Below are positions 8,183 to 16,709 of a stretch of DNA of 64,000 bases, piece by piece. The position numbers and the translations under genes are program-made. The stretch covers positions 1-64,000 of IMG/VR virus record IMGVR_UViG_3300024581_003792; one strand, given 5' to 3'. This DNA is from a virus. Positions within the stretch are counted from its first letter, which is position 1; each line of letters begins with the position of its first letter. The notes below the pieces were generated by a model, which worked only from the letters and a program-made list of their open reading frames with translations, was not told the DNA's origin and ran no database searches.

Positions 8183-8392
8183 GGATGCTCTCGACGGAGA
8201 CATCCTGTGGGTGACCGAATAAGCCTGTCGTGAGCGGGCTAAGGTATGCAAATCCCTGTGGTGGGGTTGGTAGAGTCCAATCGGATGAGCCAAATGACTA
8301 ATACCAAGTCTAGTTTGTAGTTGGAAGTAGGTACACCATTGAACTGATGTTCACGCCGAAAACATGAGGGTATACAGTAATCCCTCCCCACA
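8183..8392 (+). ncRNA. candidate structured non-coding RNA, family unassigned
   Basis: GC-rich island with no credible ORF between a promoter and a terminator; nested stems GGATG/CATCC, TGTGGG/CCCACA, AGCCTG/CGGGCT (GTGA tetraloop), TGGTG/CACCA, TTGGTA/TACCAA, TGAAC/GTTCA, GAGGG/CCCTC. Confidence 0.6.
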
Positions 8393-8419
8393 CTAATTTT
8401 CTCTCATCCCCCCTCCTTG

Positions 8420-8457
8420 AACCCCTTTCGTTTATGTCTTAGCGAAAGGGGTTTTTT
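8420..8457 (+). terminator. intrinsic terminator
   Basis: AACCCCTTTCG...CGAAAGGGGTT followed by a T-run. Confidence 0.8.
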
Positions 8458-8494: not shown

Positions 8495-8749
8495 ATGAAA
8501 ACATTAAAAGACATATTATCAAATTACGGATACATTAACTCAGCTCAACTCGCAGAGATCAACGAGCACTTTCCACACATGAGGGTAGTAATCAAATGGG
8601 GTGGATTACCTCGTGATCGCGTTCCTGTTCATCAAGCAGTAAAACTCATCAACCATATTGAATCAAAAAAAATCGACTACTGCAGAGAAGTATTCCTTAC
8701 GGGCAAAGACTGCGAAAACTTAAGAGTAGCCCTTCATATTGCCAATTAG
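8495..8749 (+). CDS. hypothetical protein
   Basis: TTGACA(8460)-17-CATACT-6-ATG. Confidence 0.7.
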   Translation: MKTLKDILSNYGYINSAQLAEINEHFPHMRVVIKWGGLPRDRVPVHQAVKLINHIESKKIDYCREVFLTGKDCENLRVALHIAN

Positions 8750-9031: not shown

Positions 9032-9098
9032 TAAAGTGTTGATTATTAGTGGTTTATGGCGGCCTGGCCCGCATAAGTGCTTGTTAGTTAACTGTTTA
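9032..9098. repeat. 67-bp dyad-palindrome-dyad element, copy 1
   Basis: taaagtgttgattattagtggttta|tggcggcctggcccgca|taagtgcttgttagttaactgttta. Confidence 0.85.
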
Positions 9099-9128
9099 CA
9101 ACAAAGTGAAAGTTTATTCATTTTTTTC

Positions 9129-9157
9129 TTGTGCTTTTAGCGTTTATCTGACATATT
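9129..9157 (+). promoter_or_regulatory. element-linked leaderless promoter
   Basis: TTGTGC-17-CATATT-6-ATG. Confidence 0.6.
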
Positions 9158-9163
9158 GTTTGT

Positions 9164-9577
9164 ATGATCTTAAGAAACCAACACGACCCAAGATACACGA
9201 TTAAAAAGAATCGTCCCGTTTATGTTTACAAGAATCTGCACAAAGATTGTTGGAGCGTCAAGCAACATAACTTAGTTAAAGCTCACATCCCAAAAGATCA
9301 AGCTATTGGCTTATGGGATTGCTATTTTCATGTTGACATGAAAGGTAGAGAAAAAGTCCTTAAGGAAAAGCGTAAAAATGTTCATGCTTATGTCAAGGGC
9401 TACCTTCAAGATGCCGAAAATGTATCTCGCAACCCCGCAGTTATCACCAAAGAGGTCGAGGTAACATACAATCCTTACAAGTATGAAACTTTTGTTGACA
9501 AGAAGGATGAAAGTTTTGTATACTATGCAGACGAAGTATTATTAACACACAACAAAGTAACCGCTTATATATCATGA
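9164..9577 (+). CDS. conserved phage hypothetical protein
   Basis: VYKNLHKDCWSV, GREKVLKEKRKNVHAYVKG and VTYNPYK resemble a widespread phage family. Confidence 0.75.
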   Translation: MILRNQHDPRYTIKKNRPVYVYKNLHKDCWSVKQHNLVKAHIPKDQAIGLWDCYFHVDMKGREKVLKEKRKNVHAYVKGYLQDAENVSRNPAVITKEVEVTYNPYKYETFVDKKDESFVYYADEVLLTHNKVTAYIS

Positions 9578-9747
9578 AACAATTATTGATTAAAATTCCT
9601 GTATCGCAATCCATCCAAGAAGTTATGGATTACATTCAGTACAGCGAGATGGAGGGCGAAGTAGATCCGACAGATTCGTGGTACAGCACATACGAATTAT
9701 TAAAAGAATTACAACAAAAAGTATTAGATGAGGAGGATATGTTATGA
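9574..9747 (+). CDS. small hypothetical protein (57 aa)
   Basis: ATGA overlaps at both ends. Confidence 0.6.
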   Translation: MKQLLIKIPVSQSIQEVMDYIQYSEMEGEVDPTDSWYSTYELLKELQQKVLDEEDML

Positions 9748-9947
9748 AAGAAGAATTAAAAGGAATCAAACACGCTATCGACGGATTATCAGATGAAATG
9801 TTAGAGCATAGACGCTATGCAAACATGGACGACCTTGTCAAGGTAATGAAAAATATCAACGATAACCTTGTATCTATCAGCTTTGACCTAAAAGAATTAG
9901 TTGAAGCAAAAAAGTTTCAAAATGAGCTGACAACAGCACTTAGATAG
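9744..9947 (+). CDS. hypothetical protein
   Basis: GGAGG Shine-Dalgarno and ATGA overlap. Confidence 0.65.
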   Translation: MKEELKGIKHAIDGLSDEMLEHRRYANMDDLVKVMKNINDNLVSISFDLKELVEAKKFQNELTTALR

Positions 9948-9952
9948 TTATC

Positions 9953-10019
9953 TAAGTTATTGAATGTCAACGGCTTAGGCGAGCCAGGCTCGCGCAAGTC
10001 ATTGATACTTAAGGGTTTA
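9953..10019. repeat. 67-bp element, copy 2
   Basis: taagttattgaatgtcaacggctta|ggcgagccaggctcgcg|caagtcattgatacttaagggttta. Confidence 0.9.
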
Positions 10020-10050
10020 AAACAAAATGCGTTTATTTTTATTTTTTTTC

Positions 10051-10079
10051 TTGCGTTACTATTAGAATTCGTCTAGTGT
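10051..10079 (+). promoter_or_regulatory. element-linked leaderless promoter
   Basis: TTGCGT-17-TAGTGT-6-ATG. Confidence 0.6.
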
Positions 10080-10085
10080 GTTTAT

Positions 10086-10253
10086 ATGCAAGAAACAATA
10101 GATGTAACACCAAAATGGTCAGCAATCGTTCCTTTCATGATCGGAGTGCTGAAGAACCCAAAAGCAGATCCTGAATCTAGAAAGTTTGTTGAAGTAGAAC
10201 TTATGAGATTAGCAAAGATTGCAGACCAAGCAAAGGAAAGGGCAAAACAATGA
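10086..10253 (+). CDS. small hypothetical protein (55 aa)
   Basis: MQETIDVTPKWSAIVP...; leaderless start; ATGA overlap with the next gene. Confidence 0.65.
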   Translation: MQETIDVTPKWSAIVPFMIGVLKNPKADPESRKFVEVELMRLAKIADQAKERAKQ

Positions 10254-10474
10254 CATTATCAGAATCAATTATGGATATAGTAAGAGGCAACCTCGCATGG
10301 TCAGATCCCATGTCAACAGTTTGCCTCGATCAACATGAGCGTCACCCCGAAAAGTTTCCAAAGGGTAGCTCGTTTCAAACTGAAGATGAATCTTTAGCGG
10401 ATATCATTAGAGACTTGACAGTATTACAAGATGAGCGTAGAATAGAATCATCTTTTCAATCAGCACAACTATAA
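10250..10474 (+). CDS. hypothetical protein
   Basis: ORF in operon. Confidence 0.6.
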   Translation: MTLSESIMDIVRGNLAWSDPMSTVCLDQHERHPEKFPKGSSFQTEDESLADIIRDLTVLQDERRIESSFQSAQL

Positions 10475-10488
10475 CACAAGGAAAAATC

Positions 10489-10704
10489 ATGACAGCAGTA
10501 TTAGACACACCCGAACAAATCGAAATGTTTCGCTACAAAACTCTTCTCAGAGGTTTAAGGCTTGAGACGCAAGGACTACAAATGAGTCGAGGCAGATCTT
10601 GCTATTCTATCATCAAACAAGAGTTTGGTCTCAAAGGTAGCAAGCAAAAAGTTTTCGATCAATTTAAACTAATGTTAGAACAAGTAGACGAAAGGGCACT
10701 ATAA
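10489..10704 (+). CDS. hypothetical protein
   Basis: AAGGA Shine-Dalgarno. Confidence 0.7.
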   Translation: MTAVLDTPEQIEMFRYKTLLRGLRLETQGLQMSRGRSCYSIIKQEFGLKGSKQKVFDQFKLMLEQVDERAL

Positions 10705-10910
10705 TGACAAAAGCAGAAATTAAAAACAGAGTAGAAAGACAATGGGAAGGTAACATGAATATCTTTGAGATATATGATGAGCTTCGCGACAACCATACCG
10801 CTGAAGAACAAGAACAACTCTTGACTCATGCTTACAACTTTTTCTCTATTCAAGATGCAAAAAACTTCATAAAAGAGCTTGCGTATCATTTCAATATCCA
10901 TATAGTATAA
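10704..10910 (+). CDS. hypothetical protein
   Basis: TAATG coupling. Confidence 0.65.
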   Translation: MTKAEIKNRVERQWEGNMNIFEIYDELRDNHTAEEQEQLLTHAYNFFSIQDAKNFIKELAYHFNIHIV

Positions 10911-10913
10911 CAT

Positions 10914-11171
10914 ATGAACAACTACATAGAAGCAACCTGCATCGGCAGTCCACTAGGTTTACCTGAATACAACGAATCCACCGAACAATGGGAATTGTTC
11001 TTTGAAGAAAACCACGACGAGTGGAATCCATATTTTGAAAGAGATATTCTTTCTGTAAGTTTCGAGTCAGTTGAAGAAGTCACTGACGCTTACAATCACT
11101 ACAACCAAAATCCCGTAAAGGAGGACAAAGAAAATGAAGAAGTTACTGAGCAAGTTCTTGCGTTGGTTTAA
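10914..11171 (+). CDS. acidic hypothetical protein
   Basis: ORF, very D/E-rich. Confidence 0.65.
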   Translation: MNNYIEATCIGSPLGLPEYNESTEQWELFFEENHDEWNPYFERDILSVSFESVEEVTDAYNHYNQNPVKEDKENEEVTEQVLALV

Positions 11172-11367
11172 CCCTGTCTATCAAGTAGTCTATACGACTG
11201 CAGAAGGCAAAACACAAATGTATACTATATCCAAACCAAAACATAAAAACGAGTTTGGCAATAGCAAAGAAGGTTTGGCAGTTGCGGGCTTTAGAGCTCA
11301 TTGTTACAACCGAGGCGACATCCGTTCATTTCGCTACGATAGAATCACATCCTTAATCAAAATATAA
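11134..11367 (+). CDS. small WYL/Sm-like domain protein
   Basis: AAGGAGG Shine-Dalgarno; C-terminal AHCYNRGDIRSFRYDRI resembles the WYL R-x-F-R-x-D-R-I motif. Confidence 0.55.
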   Translation: MKKLLSKFLRWFNPVYQVVYTTAEGKTQMYTISKPKHKNEFGNSKEGLAVAGFRAHCYNRGDIRSFRYDRITSLIKI

Positions 11368-11380
11368 TCAAAATATAATC

Positions 11381-11530
11381 ATGGAATCATTAAAAGCAGC
11401 AATCAGAGAGTTGGGTTATCAATTAGCAGTTCGCGAGATATACGGCGAGAATACGCCGGAGTATTTCCAAAAGAAACGGTCTCACGAGAGGCTCCTCAAC
11501 AAATTGTATCGATTAGAAAAAAAAGTCTAG
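11381..11530 (+). CDS. small hypothetical protein (49 aa)
   Basis: MESLKAAIRELGYQLAV...; ends just before a terminator. Confidence 0.5.
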   Translation: MESLKAAIRELGYQLAVREIYGENTPEYFQKKRSHERLLNKLYRLEKKV

Positions 11531-11544
11531 TAAATACTTTGCCC

Positions 11545-11583
11545 GCCCCCTTCTCTGCTAACGCGGGGAGGGGGTTTTTTTTT
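11545..11583 (+). terminator. intrinsic terminator
   Basis: GCCCCCTTCTCTGC-TAAC-GCGGGGAGGGGGT plus T-run. Confidence 0.8.
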
Positions 11584-11599
11584 GCGCCAAGTTAATCCC

Positions 11600-11666
11600 T
11601 AAGTTACTGTTATTCAACGACTTATGCGGGCCAGGCCCGCGCAAAGCCCTGAGAGCCAACAACTTA
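11600..11666. repeat. 67-bp element, copy 3
   Basis: taagttactgttattcaacgactta|tgcgggccaggcccgcg|caaagccctgagagccaacaactta. Confidence 0.9.
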
Positions 11667-11695
11667 TGAAAAATGCATTTTTATTCATTTTTTTC

Positions 11696-11724
11696 TTGTG
11701 TTAATTAAAAAATTAGTTTAATGT
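11696..11724 (+). promoter_or_regulatory. element-linked leaderless promoter
   Basis: TTGTGT-17-TAATGT-6-ATG. Confidence 0.6.
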
Positions 11725-11730
11725 GTTTAT

Positions 11731-11862
11731 ATGACAGCGAGAGAGATTAAGATCAGAAAAACCATTCTTTTTACTAAGTCTCGCCCGCACAAAGTTAAGA
11801 CTAAAATTCTAGATCGAAAAAAGAAGCACAAATTAAAATTAAGTATTGACAACCAATCCTAA
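11731..11862 (+). CDS. small very basic protein (43 aa)
   Basis: MTAREIKIRKTILFTKSRPHKVKTKILDRKKKHKLKLSIDNQS; leaderless start. Confidence 0.55.
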   Translation: MTAREIKIRKTILFTKSRPHKVKTKILDRKKKHKLKLSIDNQS

Positions 11863-11881
11863 ATCTATATTATAAAAAACT

Positions 11882-12742
11882 ATGACAACTACTACAAACA
11901 ACAGAATTAACTCACCAAAAATTAACCTTAGCATCTGCGGAGGCGAGCATGATGTAACCACCTTGACCCATGTCAAGTCAGTTGCTACCCCTGATACTAC
12001 TTACAGGGAAAAACTTAGCAAAAAAGGTAATCGTATCGTTTCCCATCAACCCATCCCTCATGGCGACATGATTGACTTGTTTCGTCAAGAACTTAGTCGT
12101 CGTCAGTTTCATGTTCAAAATGAGTGCCATAATCTCGCCAAAGAAGGAGCTCGCTACTTTGGTTTGTTTCAAGTCACGCATGGCTTAAGGAAAGCTGAGA
12201 CTGAGCGAAGCACTATTATTGGATTACGCAACGCTCACGACAAAGCATTTTCCGCAGGTATTTGTGCAGGTGATGCCCCATTCGTTTGCGATAACCTTAT
12301 CTTTTCAAATGAGATTGTGGTTGGTCGCAAGCACACAGGCGAGCTTGATCATCTACTCAAGGAAATTAGTGGTAAGATTACCGAAGCTCTCGGCAAACTT
12401 TTCACCATGTGGAACACTCAAGACAATAGAGTTAACGCTTACAAAGAGAGGGAGATTACTAATGCTGAGGCTAATGACCTGATCATTAAAGCCTATCAAG
12501 CTAAAGCGATTAACTTGCAACGCATCCCCGATGTTCTCAACCAATGGGAATCTAGCGATCATCCTGACTTTTGGGATCGTAATGTTAATTCATTGTATAA
12601 CGCTTTCACCGAAGTTTACAAGGGCAACCTGTTCTTAAATTCTAGCCCTTCAACTTTGATGAATAGGTCTTATGGTCTTCATTCAGTGCTTGATCCTTTT
12701 GTAGGTATTAACAAGGAAGAGCCTGAAGTCATAGAGGTTTAA
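11882..12742 (+). CDS. DUF932-like phage/plasmid protein
   Basis: HQPIPH, IIGLRNAHDK, FVCDNLIF, SLYNAFTE; TTGACA at 11846. Confidence 0.7.
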   Translation: MTTTTNNRINSPKINLSICGGEHDVTTLTHVKSVATPDTTYREKLSKKGNRIVSHQPIPHGDMIDLFRQELSRRQFHVQNECHNLAKEGARYFGLFQVTHGLRKAETERSTIIGLRNAHDKAFSAGICAGDAPFVCDNLIFSNEIVVGRKHTGELDHLLKEISGKITEALGKLFTMWNTQDNRVNAYKEREITNAEANDLIIKAYQAKAINLQRIPDVLNQWESSDHPDFWDRNVNSLYNAFTEVYKGNLFLNSSPSTLMNRSYGLHSVLDPFVGINKEEPEVIEV

Positions 12743-12767
12743 GTTAATGTTGTTGTTGGTTAATGCT

Positions 12768-12794
12768 GCCCCCTCCTTCGGGAGGGGGTTTTTT
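12768..12794 (+). terminator. intrinsic terminator
   Basis: GCCCCCTCC-TTCG-GGAGGGGGT plus T-run. Confidence 0.9.
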
Positions 12795-12813
12795 ATTTTC
12801 TAATTTAAAAACG

Positions 12814-12880
12814 TAAGTCTTTGATATTCAACGACTTCTGCGGGCCAGGCTCGCGCAAACGCTTGATATTCAACGATTTA
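12814..12880. repeat. 67-bp element, copy 4
   Basis: taagtctttgatattcaacgacttc|tgcgggccaggctcgcg|caaacgcttgatattcaacgattta. Confidence 0.9.
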
Positions 12881-12908
12881 AAAAAGTTAAAAAAACTACA
12901 TTTTTTTC

Positions 12909-12937
12909 TTGTGTTGTCTAGTTGTTGGTGTTAGGGT
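12909..12937 (+). promoter_or_regulatory. element-linked leaderless promoter
   Basis: TTGTGT-17-TAGGGT-6-ATG. Confidence 0.6.
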
Positions 12938-12943
12938 ATACAT

Positions 12944-13135
12944 ATGAAACGAATAATTGAAACCTTAATGGAACGCGACGGGTTAACCCGTCAAGAGGCG
13001 GAAGATCAAGTTGTAGCATTTAACTCTGAAATGTGGACGGATGTTGGACAAGGCGGAAGTCTTTTTGAATGGGAGGATGCTTTCTCTAGTGAGTTTGGTT
13101 TAGAGCCTGACTTTTTCGAAGATTTAGTGCTTTAA
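12944..13135 (+). CDS. small acidic phage protein
   Basis: LMERDGLT...FGLEPDF; leaderless start. Confidence 0.7.
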   Translation: MKRIIETLMERDGLTRQEAEDQVVAFNSEMWTDVGQGGSLFEWEDAFSSEFGLEPDFFEDLVL

Positions 13136-13173
13136 AGCTTGTAATTTCACAAAAAATTGTTTAGTTTATTATC

Positions 13174-13902
13174 ATGATTAACTTACTATCCAACCCAAGC
13201 AAGATGCCTTGCTATTCATTCAACATTCCCGCTTTCAAGTATTGCCCTGCGGCTCAACTTATGGCAAAAATTAAAAGCAAAGCAAAAAAGTTTATTTGTG
13301 ATTCTTGCTACGCTTGCAAAGGTTTCTATATGTTCGCCAATGTCAAGGCAAGCTTACAAAAAAAAGCTGACCTTATCACTAAGTCTTTACATCGAGACAA
13401 TGGGCAAACTTTTATTGATGAGATGACCAAGCAAATTACGGCAAAGTATTTTGACAAGCAAGGTAACAAGAAAAAACTCAAGAAAACAAACACGAATCTT
13501 TTTCGCGTTCATGATTCAGGAGATCTTTTTTCTCCAAAGTATATTGAAGCGTGGATTAAGATTTGCGAAAATTTTCCTTCAATTCGCTTTTGGTTTCCAA
13601 CTCGTGAGTGGGCAAGAGATAGTCAATTGCCACATCTTCGCAAGCTTGCAAGTTTAAAGAATGTTTGCTTAAAGCCAAGTGCTTTATATGTAGACGAACC
13701 CGCTCCACAAATTGACGGATTAGATGCGGGAACTTCCGTCTATAGCTCAAAAGAGCAAGCCGAGCAAGATGGTCATTTTGTTTGCCCCGCAACTTATGTT
13801 AAGGGTGCAGACGGCAAGATTCTCGCAACTTGCCAAGCCCATAATTGCAACTTATGCTTTATCAAGGGATGCAAAAAAGGTATTGCATATTTAGCCCACT
13901 AA
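13174..13902 (+). CDS. Gp88-like phage protein (Cys-rich, radical-SAM-like)
   Basis: PSKMPCYSFNIPA, CDSCYACKG, FRVHDSGD, WFPTRE; promoter TTGTAA(13139)-17-TAGTTT-6-ATG. Confidence 0.7.
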   Translation: MINLLSNPSKMPCYSFNIPAFKYCPAAQLMAKIKSKAKKFICDSCYACKGFYMFANVKASLQKKADLITKSLHRDNGQTFIDEMTKQITAKYFDKQGNKKKLKKTNTNLFRVHDSGDLFSPKYIEAWIKICENFPSIRFWFPTREWARDSQLPHLRKLASLKNVCLKPSALYVDEPAPQIDGLDAGTSVYSSKEQAEQDGHFVCPATYVKGADGKILATCQAHNCNLCFIKGCKKGIAYLAH

Positions 13903-13916
13903 ACTATACTAAAAAC

Positions 13917-14087
13917 ATGGACTATTACGATTCAGCCGAAGACATCACCATTTCACAAGATCGTGCCTTGCAAGAATTAGCGAGGCACGGCATCACCTCA
14001 AACGAGGATATTGTGGAGTTTTTTAACGACATGGGACAAAAAGAAGATTATGACGCTCAGGCAGTGCTTATATGGTTAGGATACTAG
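13917..14087 (+). CDS. small hypothetical protein (56 aa)
   Basis: MDYYDSAEDITIS...WLGY; start reassigned from 13845 to avoid overlap. Confidence 0.6.
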   Translation: MDYYDSAEDITISQDRALQELARHGITSNEDIVEFFNDMGQKEDYDAQAVLIWLGY

Positions 14088-14089
14088 CC

Positions 14090-14156
14090 TAAGTAGCTGT
14101 AAGTCAACGACTTATGGCGGCCTGGCCCGCGCAACATGCTGATAAACAGCAACTTA
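14090..14156. repeat. 67-bp element, copy 5
   Basis: taagtagctgtaagtcaacgactta|tggcggcctggcccgcg|caacatgctgataaacagcaactta. Confidence 0.9.
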
Positions 14157-14185
14157 CAACAAAGCAAAAAAACTTATCTTTTTTC

Positions 14186-14214
14186 TTGTGTTATGCTAAG
14201 AAATTGCTTAGGGT
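14186..14214 (+). promoter_or_regulatory. element-linked leaderless promoter
   Basis: TTGTGT-17-TAGGGT-6-ATG. Confidence 0.6.
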
Positions 14215-14220
14215 GTTCTT

Positions 14221-14625
14221 ATGATTAACTACAACATACCAAACTCAATCTCACAATTCCAACCAAGACCTTCTTTAGGTAGCCTTATGCTAGACTTTGA
14301 CGATTTAGATTTTCAACCACATCGTGGTGCTGATGATGCAGTCCAAGCAAAACTTGACTTTGGCAACGGATTTTCTATTTCTGTTGTTGCAGGGAAAGAC
14401 GGCAGACGAGGATTATACGGCAGTGTGGAGGAAGATTTGTACGAAGTTGCAATCTTTGATAAAAACGGCATGATTCCTCTCGATTGTTCGGATGATGTTG
14501 TTGGTTGGCAATCTCCTGCTCAAGTATCTTACTTGATGGCAAAAGCTCAAGCTGAGGGAAGCATTTGGGTTGACGAGCTAAAAGCAGATAGAGAAGAATT
14601 TAGAAAAGATTTAGGGCTTGACTAA
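14221..14625 (+). CDS. conserved phage hypothetical protein
   Basis: FGNGFSISVV, LYEVAIF and DDVVGW motifs. Confidence 0.7.
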   Translation: MINYNIPNSISQFQPRPSLGSLMLDFDDLDFQPHRGADDAVQAKLDFGNGFSISVVAGKDGRRGLYGSVEEDLYEVAIFDKNGMIPLDCSDDVVGWQSPAQVSYLMAKAQAEGSIWVDELKADREEFRKDLGLD

Positions 14626-14652
14626 TTACAAGTACTGAACTACATTACAACT

Positions 14653-14925
14653 ATGACTAACTTAGAAGCAATCAAGAAAGCTCACTCAAAATCAAGAAAG
14701 AAACTTGCGTCCAAGAAAGAGGCTTGGTCGGCTATAAGACAAAACCAAAAAGTCGAGCGAAAAAACTCAATTATTGATTTAGTTAAATCGGGTATTGACA
14801 CTAGCGAGGCAATCGCTATAGTTGATGCAGAGATCAAGAAAGAAAAAGACGCATTCAATTGGGAGGCTCGTGCCTACATCGAACTAAAGAAAAAACAACT
14901 ACAACTTAAACTACAAGTACAATGA
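14653..14925 (+). CDS. basic hypothetical protein
   Basis: TTGACT(14618)-17-TACATT-6-ATG. Confidence 0.65.
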   Translation: MTNLEAIKKAHSKSRKKLASKKEAWSAIRQNQKVERKNSIIDLVKSGIDTSEAIAIVDAEIKKEKDAFNWEARAYIELKKKQLQLKLQVQ

Positions 14926-15185
14926 CAGAAGAACAAAGACTCGCAATTATCGCTAACGCACATCGTGAATCAAAAGGCTTGCCGACTAGCTCCGCAGTTA
15001 TGGAATTAGTTGGTGATTTGCAAGCCGAAGCATTCGTGGTAGAGAACGGACTCGCAGAGGTCGAAGAGGATGACATCGCAGACGAGGTTCAATTTCTTTA
15101 TTCGGATAAAGCCGAAGAGATTGATGAAGAAGATCAAGATATGGGAGTATCTGATGAGATGAAAGGAGTTTACAATGATAGTTGA
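14922..15185 (+). CDS. acidic hypothetical protein
   Basis: ATGA overlap. Confidence 0.6.
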   Translation: MTEEQRLAIIANAHRESKGLPTSSAVMELVGDLQAEAFVVENGLAEVEEDDIADEVQFLYSDKAEEIDEEDQDMGVSDEMKGVYNDS

Positions 15186-15243
15186 GTTCCTTATGTTTTC
15201 GCCTTGGCTTTTCGTATTTTATCTAATGTTTTGGGGGGTGTGA
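15175..15243 (+). CDS. putative 22-aa membrane peptide
   Basis: AAAGGAG Shine-Dalgarno; MIVEFLMFSPWLFVFYLMFWGV; fills the gap exactly. Confidence 0.45.
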   Translation: MIVEFLMFSPWLFVFYLMFWGV

Positions 15244-15244
15244 T

Positions 15245-15472
15245 ATGTCATCTTTTTTTATTGCTACAACGATAGGCGGGGGCAGTCAATTCGCTATGAT
15301 GGAAGTACCTGCCACAGAAAAACCGATGAAGGGCGAATACAAACTAAGTCCTGATTGCGTCAAGGTCAATCTAGATAGTGGGCGATTCAAGGATTGCTCG
15401 GATATGTCGAGCAACGCTTACGGCAGATTGTATGTACTCAAGGAAGACCTAGACCAACTCGAAAACTATTGA
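15245..15472 (+). CDS. hypothetical protein
   Basis: ORF in operon. Confidence 0.55.
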   Translation: MSSFFIATTIGGGSQFAMMEVPATEKPMKGEYKLSPDCVKVNLDSGRFKDCSDMSSNAYGRLYVLKEDLDQLENY

Positions 15473-15532
15473 CGATAAATACCAAATACTCAAATATTTA
15501 ACTTATTCTACTTTCTGAGCTAACAACCCGTC

Positions 15533-15599
15533 TAAGTTGCTGAATATCAACGACTTAGGCGGGCCTTGCCGCCGGAAGTGCCTGAATATCAGTGGTTTA
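15533..15599. repeat. 67-bp element, copy 6
   Basis: taagttgctgaatatcaacgactta|ggcgggccttgccgccg|gaagtgcctgaatatcagtggttta. Confidence 0.85.
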
Positions 15600-15630
15600 C
15601 AGCAAAAGCAAAAAAAAGATTAAAAAAAGC

Positions 15631-15659
15631 TTGTGTTTTATTTTAGATTGGGTTAGTTT
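15631..15659 (+). promoter_or_regulatory. element-linked leaderless promoter
   Basis: TTGTGT-17-TAGTTT-6-ATG. Confidence 0.6.
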
Positions 15660-15665
15660 ACTATT

Positions 15666-15854
15666 ATGGAAATGATAAAACAACTACTCAAAAGAATCGA
15701 CGAACTACAAGCTATTATTGACACAGAAACCCCTGACGCAGACGCAGGGTGCGATTGGTCAAAGTCGCTTGTTATTAACGCTGAAAGTGAAAAAGACGAC
15801 CTGCAAGACAGAATCGATGCTCTTGCTCTTTTTGTTTCAATTAACAATCTATAA
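15666..15854 (+). CDS. hypothetical protein
   Basis: Leaderless start. Confidence 0.6.
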   Translation: MEMIKQLLKRIDELQAIIDTETPDADAGCDWSKSLVINAESEKDDLQDRIDALALFVSINNL

Positions 15855-15868
15855 GAAAGGAAAAAATT

Positions 15869-16099
15869 ATGCCAGATACAACATACAACGGATGGAAGAA
15901 CTGGGCAACCTGGAATGTCGCCCTTTGGTTAGGGAACGATGAAAATCTTTACAGATTGTCCCGCAGATTTGTCAATTATAAAGATTTAGCTGAGCACTTA
16001 AGGCTTAGCTATGGGTTAACAGGTACGCCCGATGGGGCGAGATATGACGACTCAGAGCTGGACACTTACGCACTCGATGAGTGGCTTATGGATGAGTAA
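15869..16099 (+). CDS. conserved phage protein (YNGWxNxxTWxVxLW family)
   Basis: YNGWKNWATWNVALWLGNDE and TPDG; AAGGA Shine-Dalgarno. Confidence 0.75.
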   Translation: MPDTTYNGWKNWATWNVALWLGNDENLYRLSRRFVNYKDLAEHLRLSYGLTGTPDGARYDDSELDTYALDEWLMDE

Positions 16100-16104
16100 T
16101 TACC

Positions 16105-16171
16105 TAACCTGCTTAAATTCAACGACTTAGGCAGGCCAGGCCCGCGCAAACCCCTGATATTCAAGGGTTTA
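16105..16171. repeat. 67-bp element, copy 7 (between convergent genes)
   Basis: taacctgcttaaattcaacgactta|ggcaggccaggcccgcg|caaacccctgatattcaagggttta. Confidence 0.85.
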
Positions 16172-16179
16172 GGCGGCAC

Positions 16180-16488
16180 TTAAAAAACAAGAAGATCGGG
16201 CTTCGCTGTATTTGAAGCAAACCAATCGTATGAGTCAATTTCTTGACCATTTAGTACGGGCTCGAATTTATATTGATAAACTCCGGCATTGGCTATGCCG
16301 TTCACGCGTTCGCGTGTGGTGGGGGTATTCCATCCTGCAAGCGACCAACGGACAAGCCCATCAGGATCACGCTTAACAATTGCGTTCCCATGTAGCCAAA
16401 CGGTTTTGCCGTCTGTCCTAGTATTGCCGACTTTTAACGATTTGCCTTGCTCGAAAGCTTTTTTGATTTGTTGTGTGACTTTTCTCAT
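16180..16488 (-). CDS. conserved phage hypothetical protein
   Basis: LHGNAI...GWNTPTTRERVNG. Confidence 0.7.
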   Translation of the reverse strand: MRKVTQQIKKAFEQGKSLKVGNTRTDGKTVWLHGNAIVKRDPDGLVRWSLAGWNTPTTRERVNGIANAGVYQYKFEPVLNGQEIDSYDWFASNTAKPDLLVF

Positions 16489-16489
16489 A

Positions 16490-16546
16490 TTATTTTTTTA
16501 GAATTATTAAACCGAAAACCAAACAAAGGATAATTTCAAGCACCAT
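16490..16546 (-). CDS. putative 18-aa membrane peptide
   Basis: MVLEIILCLVFGLIILKK; bridges two neighbouring genes. Confidence 0.35.
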   Translation of the reverse strand: MVLEIILCLVFGLIILKK

Positions 16547-16709
16547 ATTGCTTGATGGGGGTTTGGTTGCCTTTGTTTTTTTCCATCGCTTGGATCTGTC
16601 TTGCAATTTTCATTGCTCGACCAATCGTTTTAGCGTTGTCAATTAGTTTACCCGACAAGTTGATGTTGAACCATTCGGTGAAGTTTGGATTGCGTTGTAT
16701 TGTTATCAT
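16536..16709 (-). CDS. small hypothetical protein (57 aa)
   Basis: MITIQRNPNFTEWFNINL...; minus-strand promoter TTGCAA(16744-16739)-17-TAGAGT-6-ATG. Confidence 0.6.
   Translation of the reverse strand: MITIQRNPNFTEWFNINLSGKLIDNAKTIGRAMKIARQIQAMEKNKGNQTPIKQYGA

Follow-up and report, generated by a model that had tools for sequence, protein, structure and literature searches.

Promoter-early stem-loops (PeSL) of T4-like phages are composite modules that run from a stem-loop through an A/T-rich tract to a sigma70-like early promoter, which is followed by a start codon (Arbiol et al., 2010, PMC2839356; Comeau et al., 2014, PMC4122927). They are dense in the hyperplastic regions of these genomes, where insertions, deletions and replacements occur; excised mini-circles are detectable by inverse PCR, and the authors speculated on a DNA-binding helper (PMC2839356; PMC4122927). 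A second precedent is provided by the RIB/RIP elements of enterobacteria, also known as bacterial interspersed mosaic elements of type 1 (BIME-1), in which repetitive extragenic palindromes (REP) flank a site for the integration host factor (IHF). They are found where transcription units end, on the 3' side, and a role as architectural elements or topological insulators has been proposed for them (Boccard and Prentki, 1993, as cited in PMC3333891). Here, we analyse a 67-bp tripartite element that recurs in a cluster of small genes of an uncultured marine phage. The stretch of DNA considered, hereinafter the window, comprises 64,000 nt, namely, bases 1-64000 of the CheckV-complete genome of 213,830 bp deposited as IMG/VR record IMGVR_UViG_3300024581_003792. 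The element and the cassettes that it delimits are probably an elaborate, protein-site-type variant of the PeSL cassettes of T4-like phages, serving as both a boundary and a recombination hotspot.

A family of tripartite elements

A repeat finder run on the window returned one family with seven copies (Table 1), reported as a 75-nt repeat that begins 8 nt before each 67-bp copy. The copies align without gaps as 25 + 17 + 25 bp, with 24 invariant columns and no indels, and a profile built from them matches exactly these seven sites across the 213,830-bp genome, with E values of 1e-13 to 5e-19. The best profile strand is plus for all seven copies, with weaker minus-strand matches at the same sites because the element is quasi-palindromic; the polarity of copy 1 is ambiguous (35 vs 33 bits on its two strands). 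An earlier note, made from the letters of the window, had listed the same starts and the same ungapped layout, had placed copies 2, 5 and 7 shortly after stop codons and copies 3 and 4 behind terminators, and had described copy 7 as a promoterless element at a convergence of plus and minus genes. Repeat finder, alignment and profile agree with the first of these statements, the distances to the stops and the canonical hairpins with T-runs found just upstream of copies 3 and 4 (11547-11574 and 12768-12789) with the next two, and the gene positions around copy 7 (plus gene 15869-16099, minus gene 16180-16488) with the last.

Two IHF-like boxes around a GC-rich centre

Anatomy statistics were computed from 462 distinct copies of the element. 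Each 25-bp box follows the skeleton Y1 A2 A3 N4 T8 T9 G10 A11 ... T15 C16 A17 A18 N4 T23 T24 R25, in which Y1 A2 A3, T9 G10, C16 A17 A18 and T23 T24 R25 are invariant or nearly so, T8, A11 and T15 are kept less strictly, positions 4-7 vary and positions 19-22 mostly read CGAC. Compared with the IHF consensus WATCAANNNNTTR (taken from PMC5224486), each box reads as a pair of IHF core sites (TCAANNNNTTR) set back to back: the invariant columns match the consensus positions, including the terminal R/Y (box end positions are 97%-100% R, or Y on the mirrored side), and variable positions 4-7 fall on the NNNN of the mirrored site. The exact core is found on the polar strand in 78% of first boxes and 63% of second boxes, and on the opposite strand in 38%-41%; both boxes carry it in 316 of the 462 copies. 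The boxes are direct repeats 42 bp, or four helical turns, apart, and the centre between them keeps the motif GCC-N-GGC, with flanks that differ by lineage. A few elements share a box, in the order box-centre-box-centre-box, so that the repeating unit is a box plus a spacer with a 42-bp period; such overlapping double elements of 109 bp occur at L082:4827-4935 and L113:2679-2787. A flip of the GC-rich centre with cassette orientation was also considered and dropped, the haplotypes CG/GC, GC/CG and CG/CG not tracking context cleanly.

The boxes are polar, the 3' half being conserved and the 5' half variable. This polarity has the same sign in tandem plus and tandem minus contexts, agrees with the conserved genes flanking the array in every locus where these are visible, and is uniform in 48 of 64 loci, with 313 of 334 copies (94%) matching the majority of their locus. 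Polarity thus follows the genome backbone, not transcription, which argues against a role at the RNA level and raises the possibility of some process running along the genome in one direction.

Elements at transcription-unit boundaries

In copies 1-6, the start codon lies 64-67 nt past the end of the element, across an A/T tract and a promoter-like sequence of the class TTGYGN-N17-TAnnnT, and the gene is leaderless (Table 1). The earlier note had likewise described six copies as followed by an A/T tract, a promoter and a leaderless gene, and its description stands, with promoters predicted from sequence only. The class is restricted to the six units and one weak minus-strand copy at 16760-16707. 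This additional predicted promoter is followed by the leaderless ATG of an open reading frame (ORF) at 16536-16709 on the minus strand, with the element absent upstream. A strict sigma70 scan does not pick up the six modules because their -35 hexamer is TTGYGN. Most relatives share the unit form, which may be written as TTGYGN or TTGAC, N17, TAnnnT, 6-7 nt and ATG. Of 93 ATGs measured from the element edge, 46 lie 62-68 nt away; a second mode occurs at 74-78 nt, one helical turn further, and in a third promoter-side class a GC hairpin is inserted between element and promoter. On the 3' side of the preceding genes, stop codons often take one of three positions: -11, where positions 9-11 of the element read TGA; -3, where the element itself supplies a TAA; or +5.

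Across 19 gene-mapped loci, the elements occupy 37 tandem plus, 37 tandem minus, 23 convergent and 8 divergent junctions, and therefore mark every transcription-unit boundary rather than promoters alone.

Table 1. Elements, promoter-like modules, terminators and conserved flanking genes in the window
Feature	Coordinates	Strand	Remarks
Element copy 1	9032..9098	+	Found by repeat finder, alignment and profile (48.8 bits); most degenerate copy
Element copy 2	9953..10019	+	Starts 5 nt past the stop of ORF 9744-9947
Element copy 3	11600..11666	+	Downstream of a canonical terminator
Element copy 4	12814..12880	+	Downstream of a canonical terminator
Element copy 5	14090..14156	+	Starts 2 nt past a stop codon
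Element copy 6	15533..15599	+	Followed by an A-rich (type B) promoter
Element copy 7	16105..16171	+	Convergent junction, no promoter; starts 5 nt past a stop codon
A/T tract and promoter-like module	9099..9163	+	65 nt; leaderless ATG at 9164
A/T tract and promoter-like module	10020..10085	+	ATG at 10086
A/T tract and promoter-like module	11667..11730	+	ATG at 11731
A/T tract and promoter-like module	12881..12943	+	ATG at 12944
A/T tract and promoter-like module	14157..14220	+	ATG at 14221
A-rich tract and promoter-like module (type B)	15600..15665	+	ATG at 15666
Canonical intrinsic terminator (hairpin and T-run)	11547..11584	+	Upstream of copy 3
Canonical intrinsic terminator (hairpin and T-run)	12768..12799	+	Upstream of copy 4
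Conserved 84-aa gene	8495..8749	+	Directly borders the first element on its left in all relatives with the left flank recovered
Conserved 102-aa gene, Pfam Kyano_Gp96	16180..16488	-	Just right of the last element

Conservation of sequence versus structure

The position of the element at the 3' ends of transcription units, convergent ones included, would also suit an RNA-level role akin to that of the PeSL stem-loops, which are measured terminators (PMC2839356): the element could terminate or attenuate the upstream transcript or stabilise its 3' end. Indeed, the GC-rich palindromic centre of the consensus can fold, with predicted free energies of -16 to -25 kcal/mol and modest z-scores of -0.8 to -3.6. 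Nevertheless, structure tests across the copies do not reveal selection on pairing. Under a model of three local hairpins, 76.6% of cells pair versus 76.4 +/- 0.4% when the 3' partners are shuffled (193/500), a model with one long hairpin scores lower than the shuffles, and pairing is not significant against shuffles for the centre alone (370/500) or the boxes alone (74/500). Mutual information consists mainly of couplings between neighbours, 30:38 being the sole palindrome-symmetric pair. Besides this lack of covariation, no U-tract follows the element, the canonical terminators directly upstream of copies 3 and 4 would render it redundant there, its polarity does not flip with the transcribed strand, there is nothing to terminate at the 8 divergent junctions, and its conservation is at the level of sequence across genomes whose genes are 65%-80% identical. 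Accordingly, we consider an RNA-level function to be quite improbable. The absence of covariation means that conservation acts on the sequence itself, as expected of a protein site on duplex DNA, and the suggestion of the earlier note that the element organises a nucleoprotein fits this pattern, which is more readily reconciled with protein-binding DNA than with folded RNA.

Cassette exchange at the elements

Gene-family maps of the arrays revealed cassettes that had been swapped, inverted and inserted. For instance, the relative G003 has a fam24-fam13 cassette ahead of the fam23...fam12 cassette; the cassette headed by copy 6 (15666-16099; >32 >2 in the window) is inverted in the relative G002 (<2 <u <32); and the relative G001 carries an additional cassette (<38) together with its own extra element between cassettes 3 and 4 of the window, at the site of copy 4. 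Copy 2 is without counterpart in four relatives (G002, G005, L085 and G003), in which the flanking genes form one cassette. Gene adjacency in the arrays is retained across an element in 41 of 182 cases (23%) versus 112 of 252 (44%) inside cassettes, these counts not being independent.

The ends of internal homology (high-scoring segment pairs, HSP) inside arrays, compared between contigs at least 95% identical among the 143 loci described below, concentrate the breakpoints at the elements. In 43 of 82 cases (52%), an element contains the internal end or lies no more than 10 bp from it, compared with 9.2% for random positions; when the 47 ends up to 70 bp away from an element are considered, 43 are this close, compared with 42% expected. 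It weakens our interpretation that the breakpoint counts are not independent, since they include both partners and near-duplicate contigs, although p remains below 1e-6 after halving them. In one 99.5%-identical pair, a 516-bp indel ends 4 nt before an element. A weaker early test, using HSPs of at least 88% identity in the first 19 loci, placed 24 of 48 ends within 100 bp of an element versus a null of 39%; the enrichment was weak because divergence blurs HSP ends, and this test is superseded by the one at 95%. Rearrangements are also found inside cassettes, so that the elements are preferred rather than exclusive breakpoints. Thus, the gain, loss and reordering of cassettes with breakpoints at the elements, which the earlier note had proposed to look for in relatives, are all observed, as is inversion. 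In a separate locus (L092:1-3300), five near-identical repeats of element, GC hairpin and promoter accompany two copies of one small gene family, which looks like a recent tandem duplication of a cassette.

Could such exchange be the work of a dedicated, integron-like system, in which an unrecognised recombinase excises and inserts promoter-bearing cassettes as circles? The architecture is precise, with gene ends at -11, -3 and +5 and promoters at a fixed offset; whole cassettes occur in either orientation between elements of one polarity, 94% of array copies being directly oriented; breakpoints concentrate in the element and not in the adjacent promoter; and the copies of one genome are of low identity, as are attC sites. 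Yet the complete genome encodes no protein of the Phage_integrase, Resolvase, Y1_Tnp, IS110 DEDD, RecT or ERF families, so that the absence of a visible recombinase, remarked in the earlier note for the window, extends genome-wide for tyrosine and serine recombinases and for Y1 and IS110 transposases. Furthermore, the apparent break positions are scattered over the whole element instead of marking one crossover point, many rearrangements are inside cassettes, and the phasing of the promoters suggests a role in expression. We therefore regard a dedicated site-specific system as improbable. No more promising is a related scenario, whereby an unrecognised protein, encoded by the phage or injected, and possibly acting with host IHF on the directly oriented boxes, would catalyse or stimulate the excision, insertion and flipping of cassettes between co-infecting genomes. 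If it were true, such an exchange platform would do the work of an integron without any of the recombinase and transposase families searched. The sole recombination protein found among all families searched is the product of a RecA/UvsX-like gene outside the window (G000:C1:132299-132910; Pfam RecA, E 1e-11, 377-aa frame).

A spread of the repeat for its own sake, as a selfish miniature inverted-repeat element of the MITE (miniature inverted-repeat transposable element) or REP type, is scarcely tenable. The element is indeed short, quasi-palindromic and intergenic, and one relative, L092, has a few copies that are identical together with their flanks. However, there is one array per genome, with no copies in the other ~200 kb; the copies within a genome are 58%-79% identical; no target-site duplication is evident in the flanks; no transposase of the Y1 or IS110 type, the types searched, is encoded; and the element is absent from 185,579 species-representative bacterial genomes except for mis-binned phage contigs.

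A putative protein-bound boundary module

The composite reading that we favour, and to which we assign an even chance of being correct, holds that the element is a boundary module bound by an IHF-type protein, at which crossovers by general recombination are preferred. The 67-bp element would be a protein-binding module on double-stranded DNA, situated at each transcription-unit boundary of a hyperplastic early region and consisting of two boxes on either side of a rigid GC-rich spacer, at a distance of four helical turns. We infer that host IHF or another protein binds it; it is about a toss-up whether that protein is IHF, the most likely occupant being this host DNA-bending protein, which would already be present at injection. 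The folded nucleoprotein may isolate neighbouring units and present the A/T tract to RNA polymerase, with a promoter in helical register on either side. Comparison of relatives shows that cassettes are inserted, deleted, replaced, reordered and inverted at the element, which is the preferred crossover point because it is the sole sequence common to otherwise unrelated cassettes. The exchange probably proceeds via general homologous recombination, for which the RecA/UvsX-like gene is a candidate, and not via a dedicated site-specific recombinase.

Several observations weigh against this composite reading. The full 13-mer WATCAANNNNTTR is matched in only 19%-32% of boxes, and the polar-strand 'NNNN' is conserved too, as CGAC (83%-91%), beyond the IHF consensus, which suggests another or an additional protein. 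Strong IHF sites carry an A/T-rich element 5' of the core. No such A/T-rich element precedes the core here, the 5' part of the box being the mirrored core, of mixed composition. The phage genome encodes no protein of the HU/IHF family. Elements stand without a promoter at the 23 convergent junctions and, conversely, the minus-strand promoter of the class lacks an element, so that promoter activation is not the sole or essential role. The fixation of polarity to the backbone is not explained by an IHF-bound boundary. Finally, the copies within one genome are 58%-79% identical, with a median exact run of ~10 nt, and are therefore poor substrates for ordinary homologous recombination; this low identity fits selection against self-deletion.

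Some of these features would be accommodated if the boxes were bound not by host IHF but by a sequence-specific protein of an unrecognised family encoded by the phage itself, for instance, a repressor that shuts off early genes, a roadblock or an activator, comparable to the proteins acting at operators or 'stoperators', with recombination as a by-product. Conservation outside the IHF consensus is strong (CGAC at 19-22 and the GCC-N-GGC centre); the centre varies among lineages yet is common to the copies of one array, as if it co-evolved with a cognate protein; the strict length of 67 bp (66 bp in one lineage), the 42-bp period and the three-box elements suggest a defined oligomer; and nearly all relatives whose relevant flank was recovered have two small genes of unknown function at the edges of the array. 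Nevertheless, no isolated box, which might mark a regulator gene, lies near any candidate elsewhere in the genome. Of the two flanking proteins, one belongs to Kyano_Gp96, a family of unknown function, and the other, of 84 aa, has a confident structural model (pLDDT 90) which matches no DNA-binding fold; as an element binder it was rejected, searches having given no match in the PDB (E 0.001 or better) and no lead in the Atlas. In addition, elements at presumed early promoters must act before a phage protein is made, unless that protein is a repressor or is injected. On balance, a phage-encoded binder appears possible but unlikely.

Distribution of the element

No cultured phage is closely related to this one: the phage GenBank collection holds no near relative, nor one at the protein level beyond ~25% identity to terminases. 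In IMG/VR, 270 relatives of its terminase were found. With a pattern built on the invariant positions, element arrays were recovered in 12 and then 23 viral loci. Five long relatives each contain a single cluster of copies (10, 15, 7, 2 and 9, respectively), in which a reversed control pattern gave 0 hits, and the four whole-array records fetched in full carry 7 to 15 copies. A scan of marine metagenomes with 20 invariant bases gave at least 120 contigs. All 143 marine viral or metagenomic loci together hold 577 copies, of which 531 (92%) are 67 bp long, 35 are 66 bp, 7 are 68 bp and 4 are of other lengths. The 66-bp copies mostly represent one lineage with a 16-bp centre, and length is therefore fixed per array but not universally: the description of the element as length-invariant in the earlier note applies within an array and gives way across the clade. 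Nearly all copies in the locus L094 (IMGVR_UViG_3300030419_006812) are 66 bp long, and two such copies are also present in G005.

Among the 185,579 species-representative bacterial genomes, there were no true hits apart from phage contigs binned into metagenome-assembled genomes (MAG). Hits in a SAR116 single-cell genome and in Acidobacteria, considered as a clue to the host, were chance matches to the pattern without a profile hit. Contigs with arrays lie inside MAGs labelled Cellvibrionales and Enterobacterales (L114, JAYQMT010000004.1, 210,818 bp; L112/L113, CAZSAT010000176.1); these are probably mis-binned phage contigs or, possibly, weak hints at the host, bin labels being unreliable evidence in this respect. 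The scans envisaged in the earlier note thus yielded seven sites in the genome, a clade-wide presence in relatives and, among bacteria, phage contigs alone, and the 67-bp element is a trait of the whole phage clade. It provides an easily searched sequence handle on an abundant clade of uncultured ocean phages of 200 kb, one that singles out their rapidly changing accessory region and separates the individual cassettes within that region.

Genes and RNAs in and around the array

The proteins encoded in the cassettes match only families of unknown function (L5 gp82-like, DUF932, GP88, DUF7249 and Kyano_Gp96). The assignment of these genes to host takeover and anti-defence in the earlier note, while plausible for an early hyperplastic region, is not backed by these matches. 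The Kyano_Gp96 gene flanks the array in 12 of the 13 relatives with the right flank recovered, the exception being G003, and is at least 80% identical across the clade, far above the conservation of its neighbours.

A full-length manA RNA (Rfam RF01745, 88 bits) is located just upstream of the array at 8183-8396 on the plus strand, is conserved in the relative L085 and is followed by a terminator at 8419-8454. No other RNA family was detected in the Rfam search, and no tRNAs were found. Two independently assembled genomes of ~200 kb, G000 and G005 (L108-L110), break within ~1.5 kb of the same point, the array lying 9-11 kb from this shared break point; the two ends of G005 overlap. The coincidence hints at defined physical ends or a repeat.

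Comparison with known systems

The defining features of integrons, of REP/BIME elements associated with RAYT and of MITEs were each sought and not found, and the element thus belongs to none of these groups. Like attC sites, the elements are imperfect palindromes that lie directly downstream of genes and separate cassettes; the copies show low identity and a uniform orientation. Unlike in integrons, the cassettes carry promoters of their own and occur in both orientations, and there is no IntI-type tyrosine recombinase; the complete genome contains no Phage_integrase match that could stand for an IntI with its attI. Furthermore, whereas attC sites conserve the fold and vary in sequence, here conservation lies in the sequence, and pairing stays at the level of shuffles. 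The REP/BIME-RAYT systems combine a Y1 (HUH) transposase with hairpins spread chromosome-wide, in place of which we found a single array and no Y1_Tnp protein. MITEs are near-identical, dispersed copies with target-site duplications, and the copies described here are 58%-79% identical, lack such duplications in the flanks and are not dispersed.

Two other comparisons bear on the possible binding protein. In the lambda pL and Mu Pe promoters, early transcription of the phage is activated by IHF bound upstream. The layout is similar, with an IHF(-like) site ~80 bp upstream of a sigma70 promoter and an A/T-rich, UP-like tract in between; here, however, two phased sites flank a GC spacer, and the arrangement is repeated at 7-16 units, including promoterless ones. 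The RIB/RIP elements (PMC3333891) share with the present element an extragenic mosaic, located where transcription units end, in which a GC-rich palindrome is combined with the IHF consensus. The order is reversed here, the IHF-like boxes flanking the palindrome, and our element is phage-borne, confined to a single array, in register with promoters and without a RAYT/Y1 transposase.

The closest parallel is with the PeSL. Both are intergenic composites in the order palindrome, A/T tract, sigma70-like early promoter and start codon, densely repeated among small ORFs; in both, the indels, replacements and displacements that distinguish close relatives break at the module; and both lack a known dedicated recombinase and occur in phages with recombination genes of their own. 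With regard to the individual hallmarks, a sigma70-like promoter with an A/T tract is predicted from sequence directly before the start codon, and clustering and breakpoints at the motif are evident (one array per genome; 52% vs 9%). The stem-loop is equivocal: the centre can fold, yet there is no covariation and no U-tract, and canonical terminators are separate. The differences are also substantial, in that the PeSL stem-loop is a simple terminator hairpin of a G-run and a C-run, whereas the element described here is tripartite, of fixed length (67 bp) and conserved in sequence; it stands alone at convergent junctions with a polarity tied to the backbone; the breakpoints fall in the element and not in the A/T tract; and the genes are leaderless, without a Shine-Dalgarno part. 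The conclusion of the earlier note that the architecture matches neither integron attC arrays nor the promoter/stem-loop cassettes of T4-type phages is therefore too strong, because the layout and the evolutionary effect are those of the PeSL (PMC2839356; PMC4122927). Collectively, these observations suggest that modular shuffling of the PeSL type reaches beyond T4-like phages, with an exchange point that resembles a defined architectural protein site, so that the question raised by the PeSL, namely, whether a DNA-binding helper takes part or general recombination suffices, becomes directly testable.

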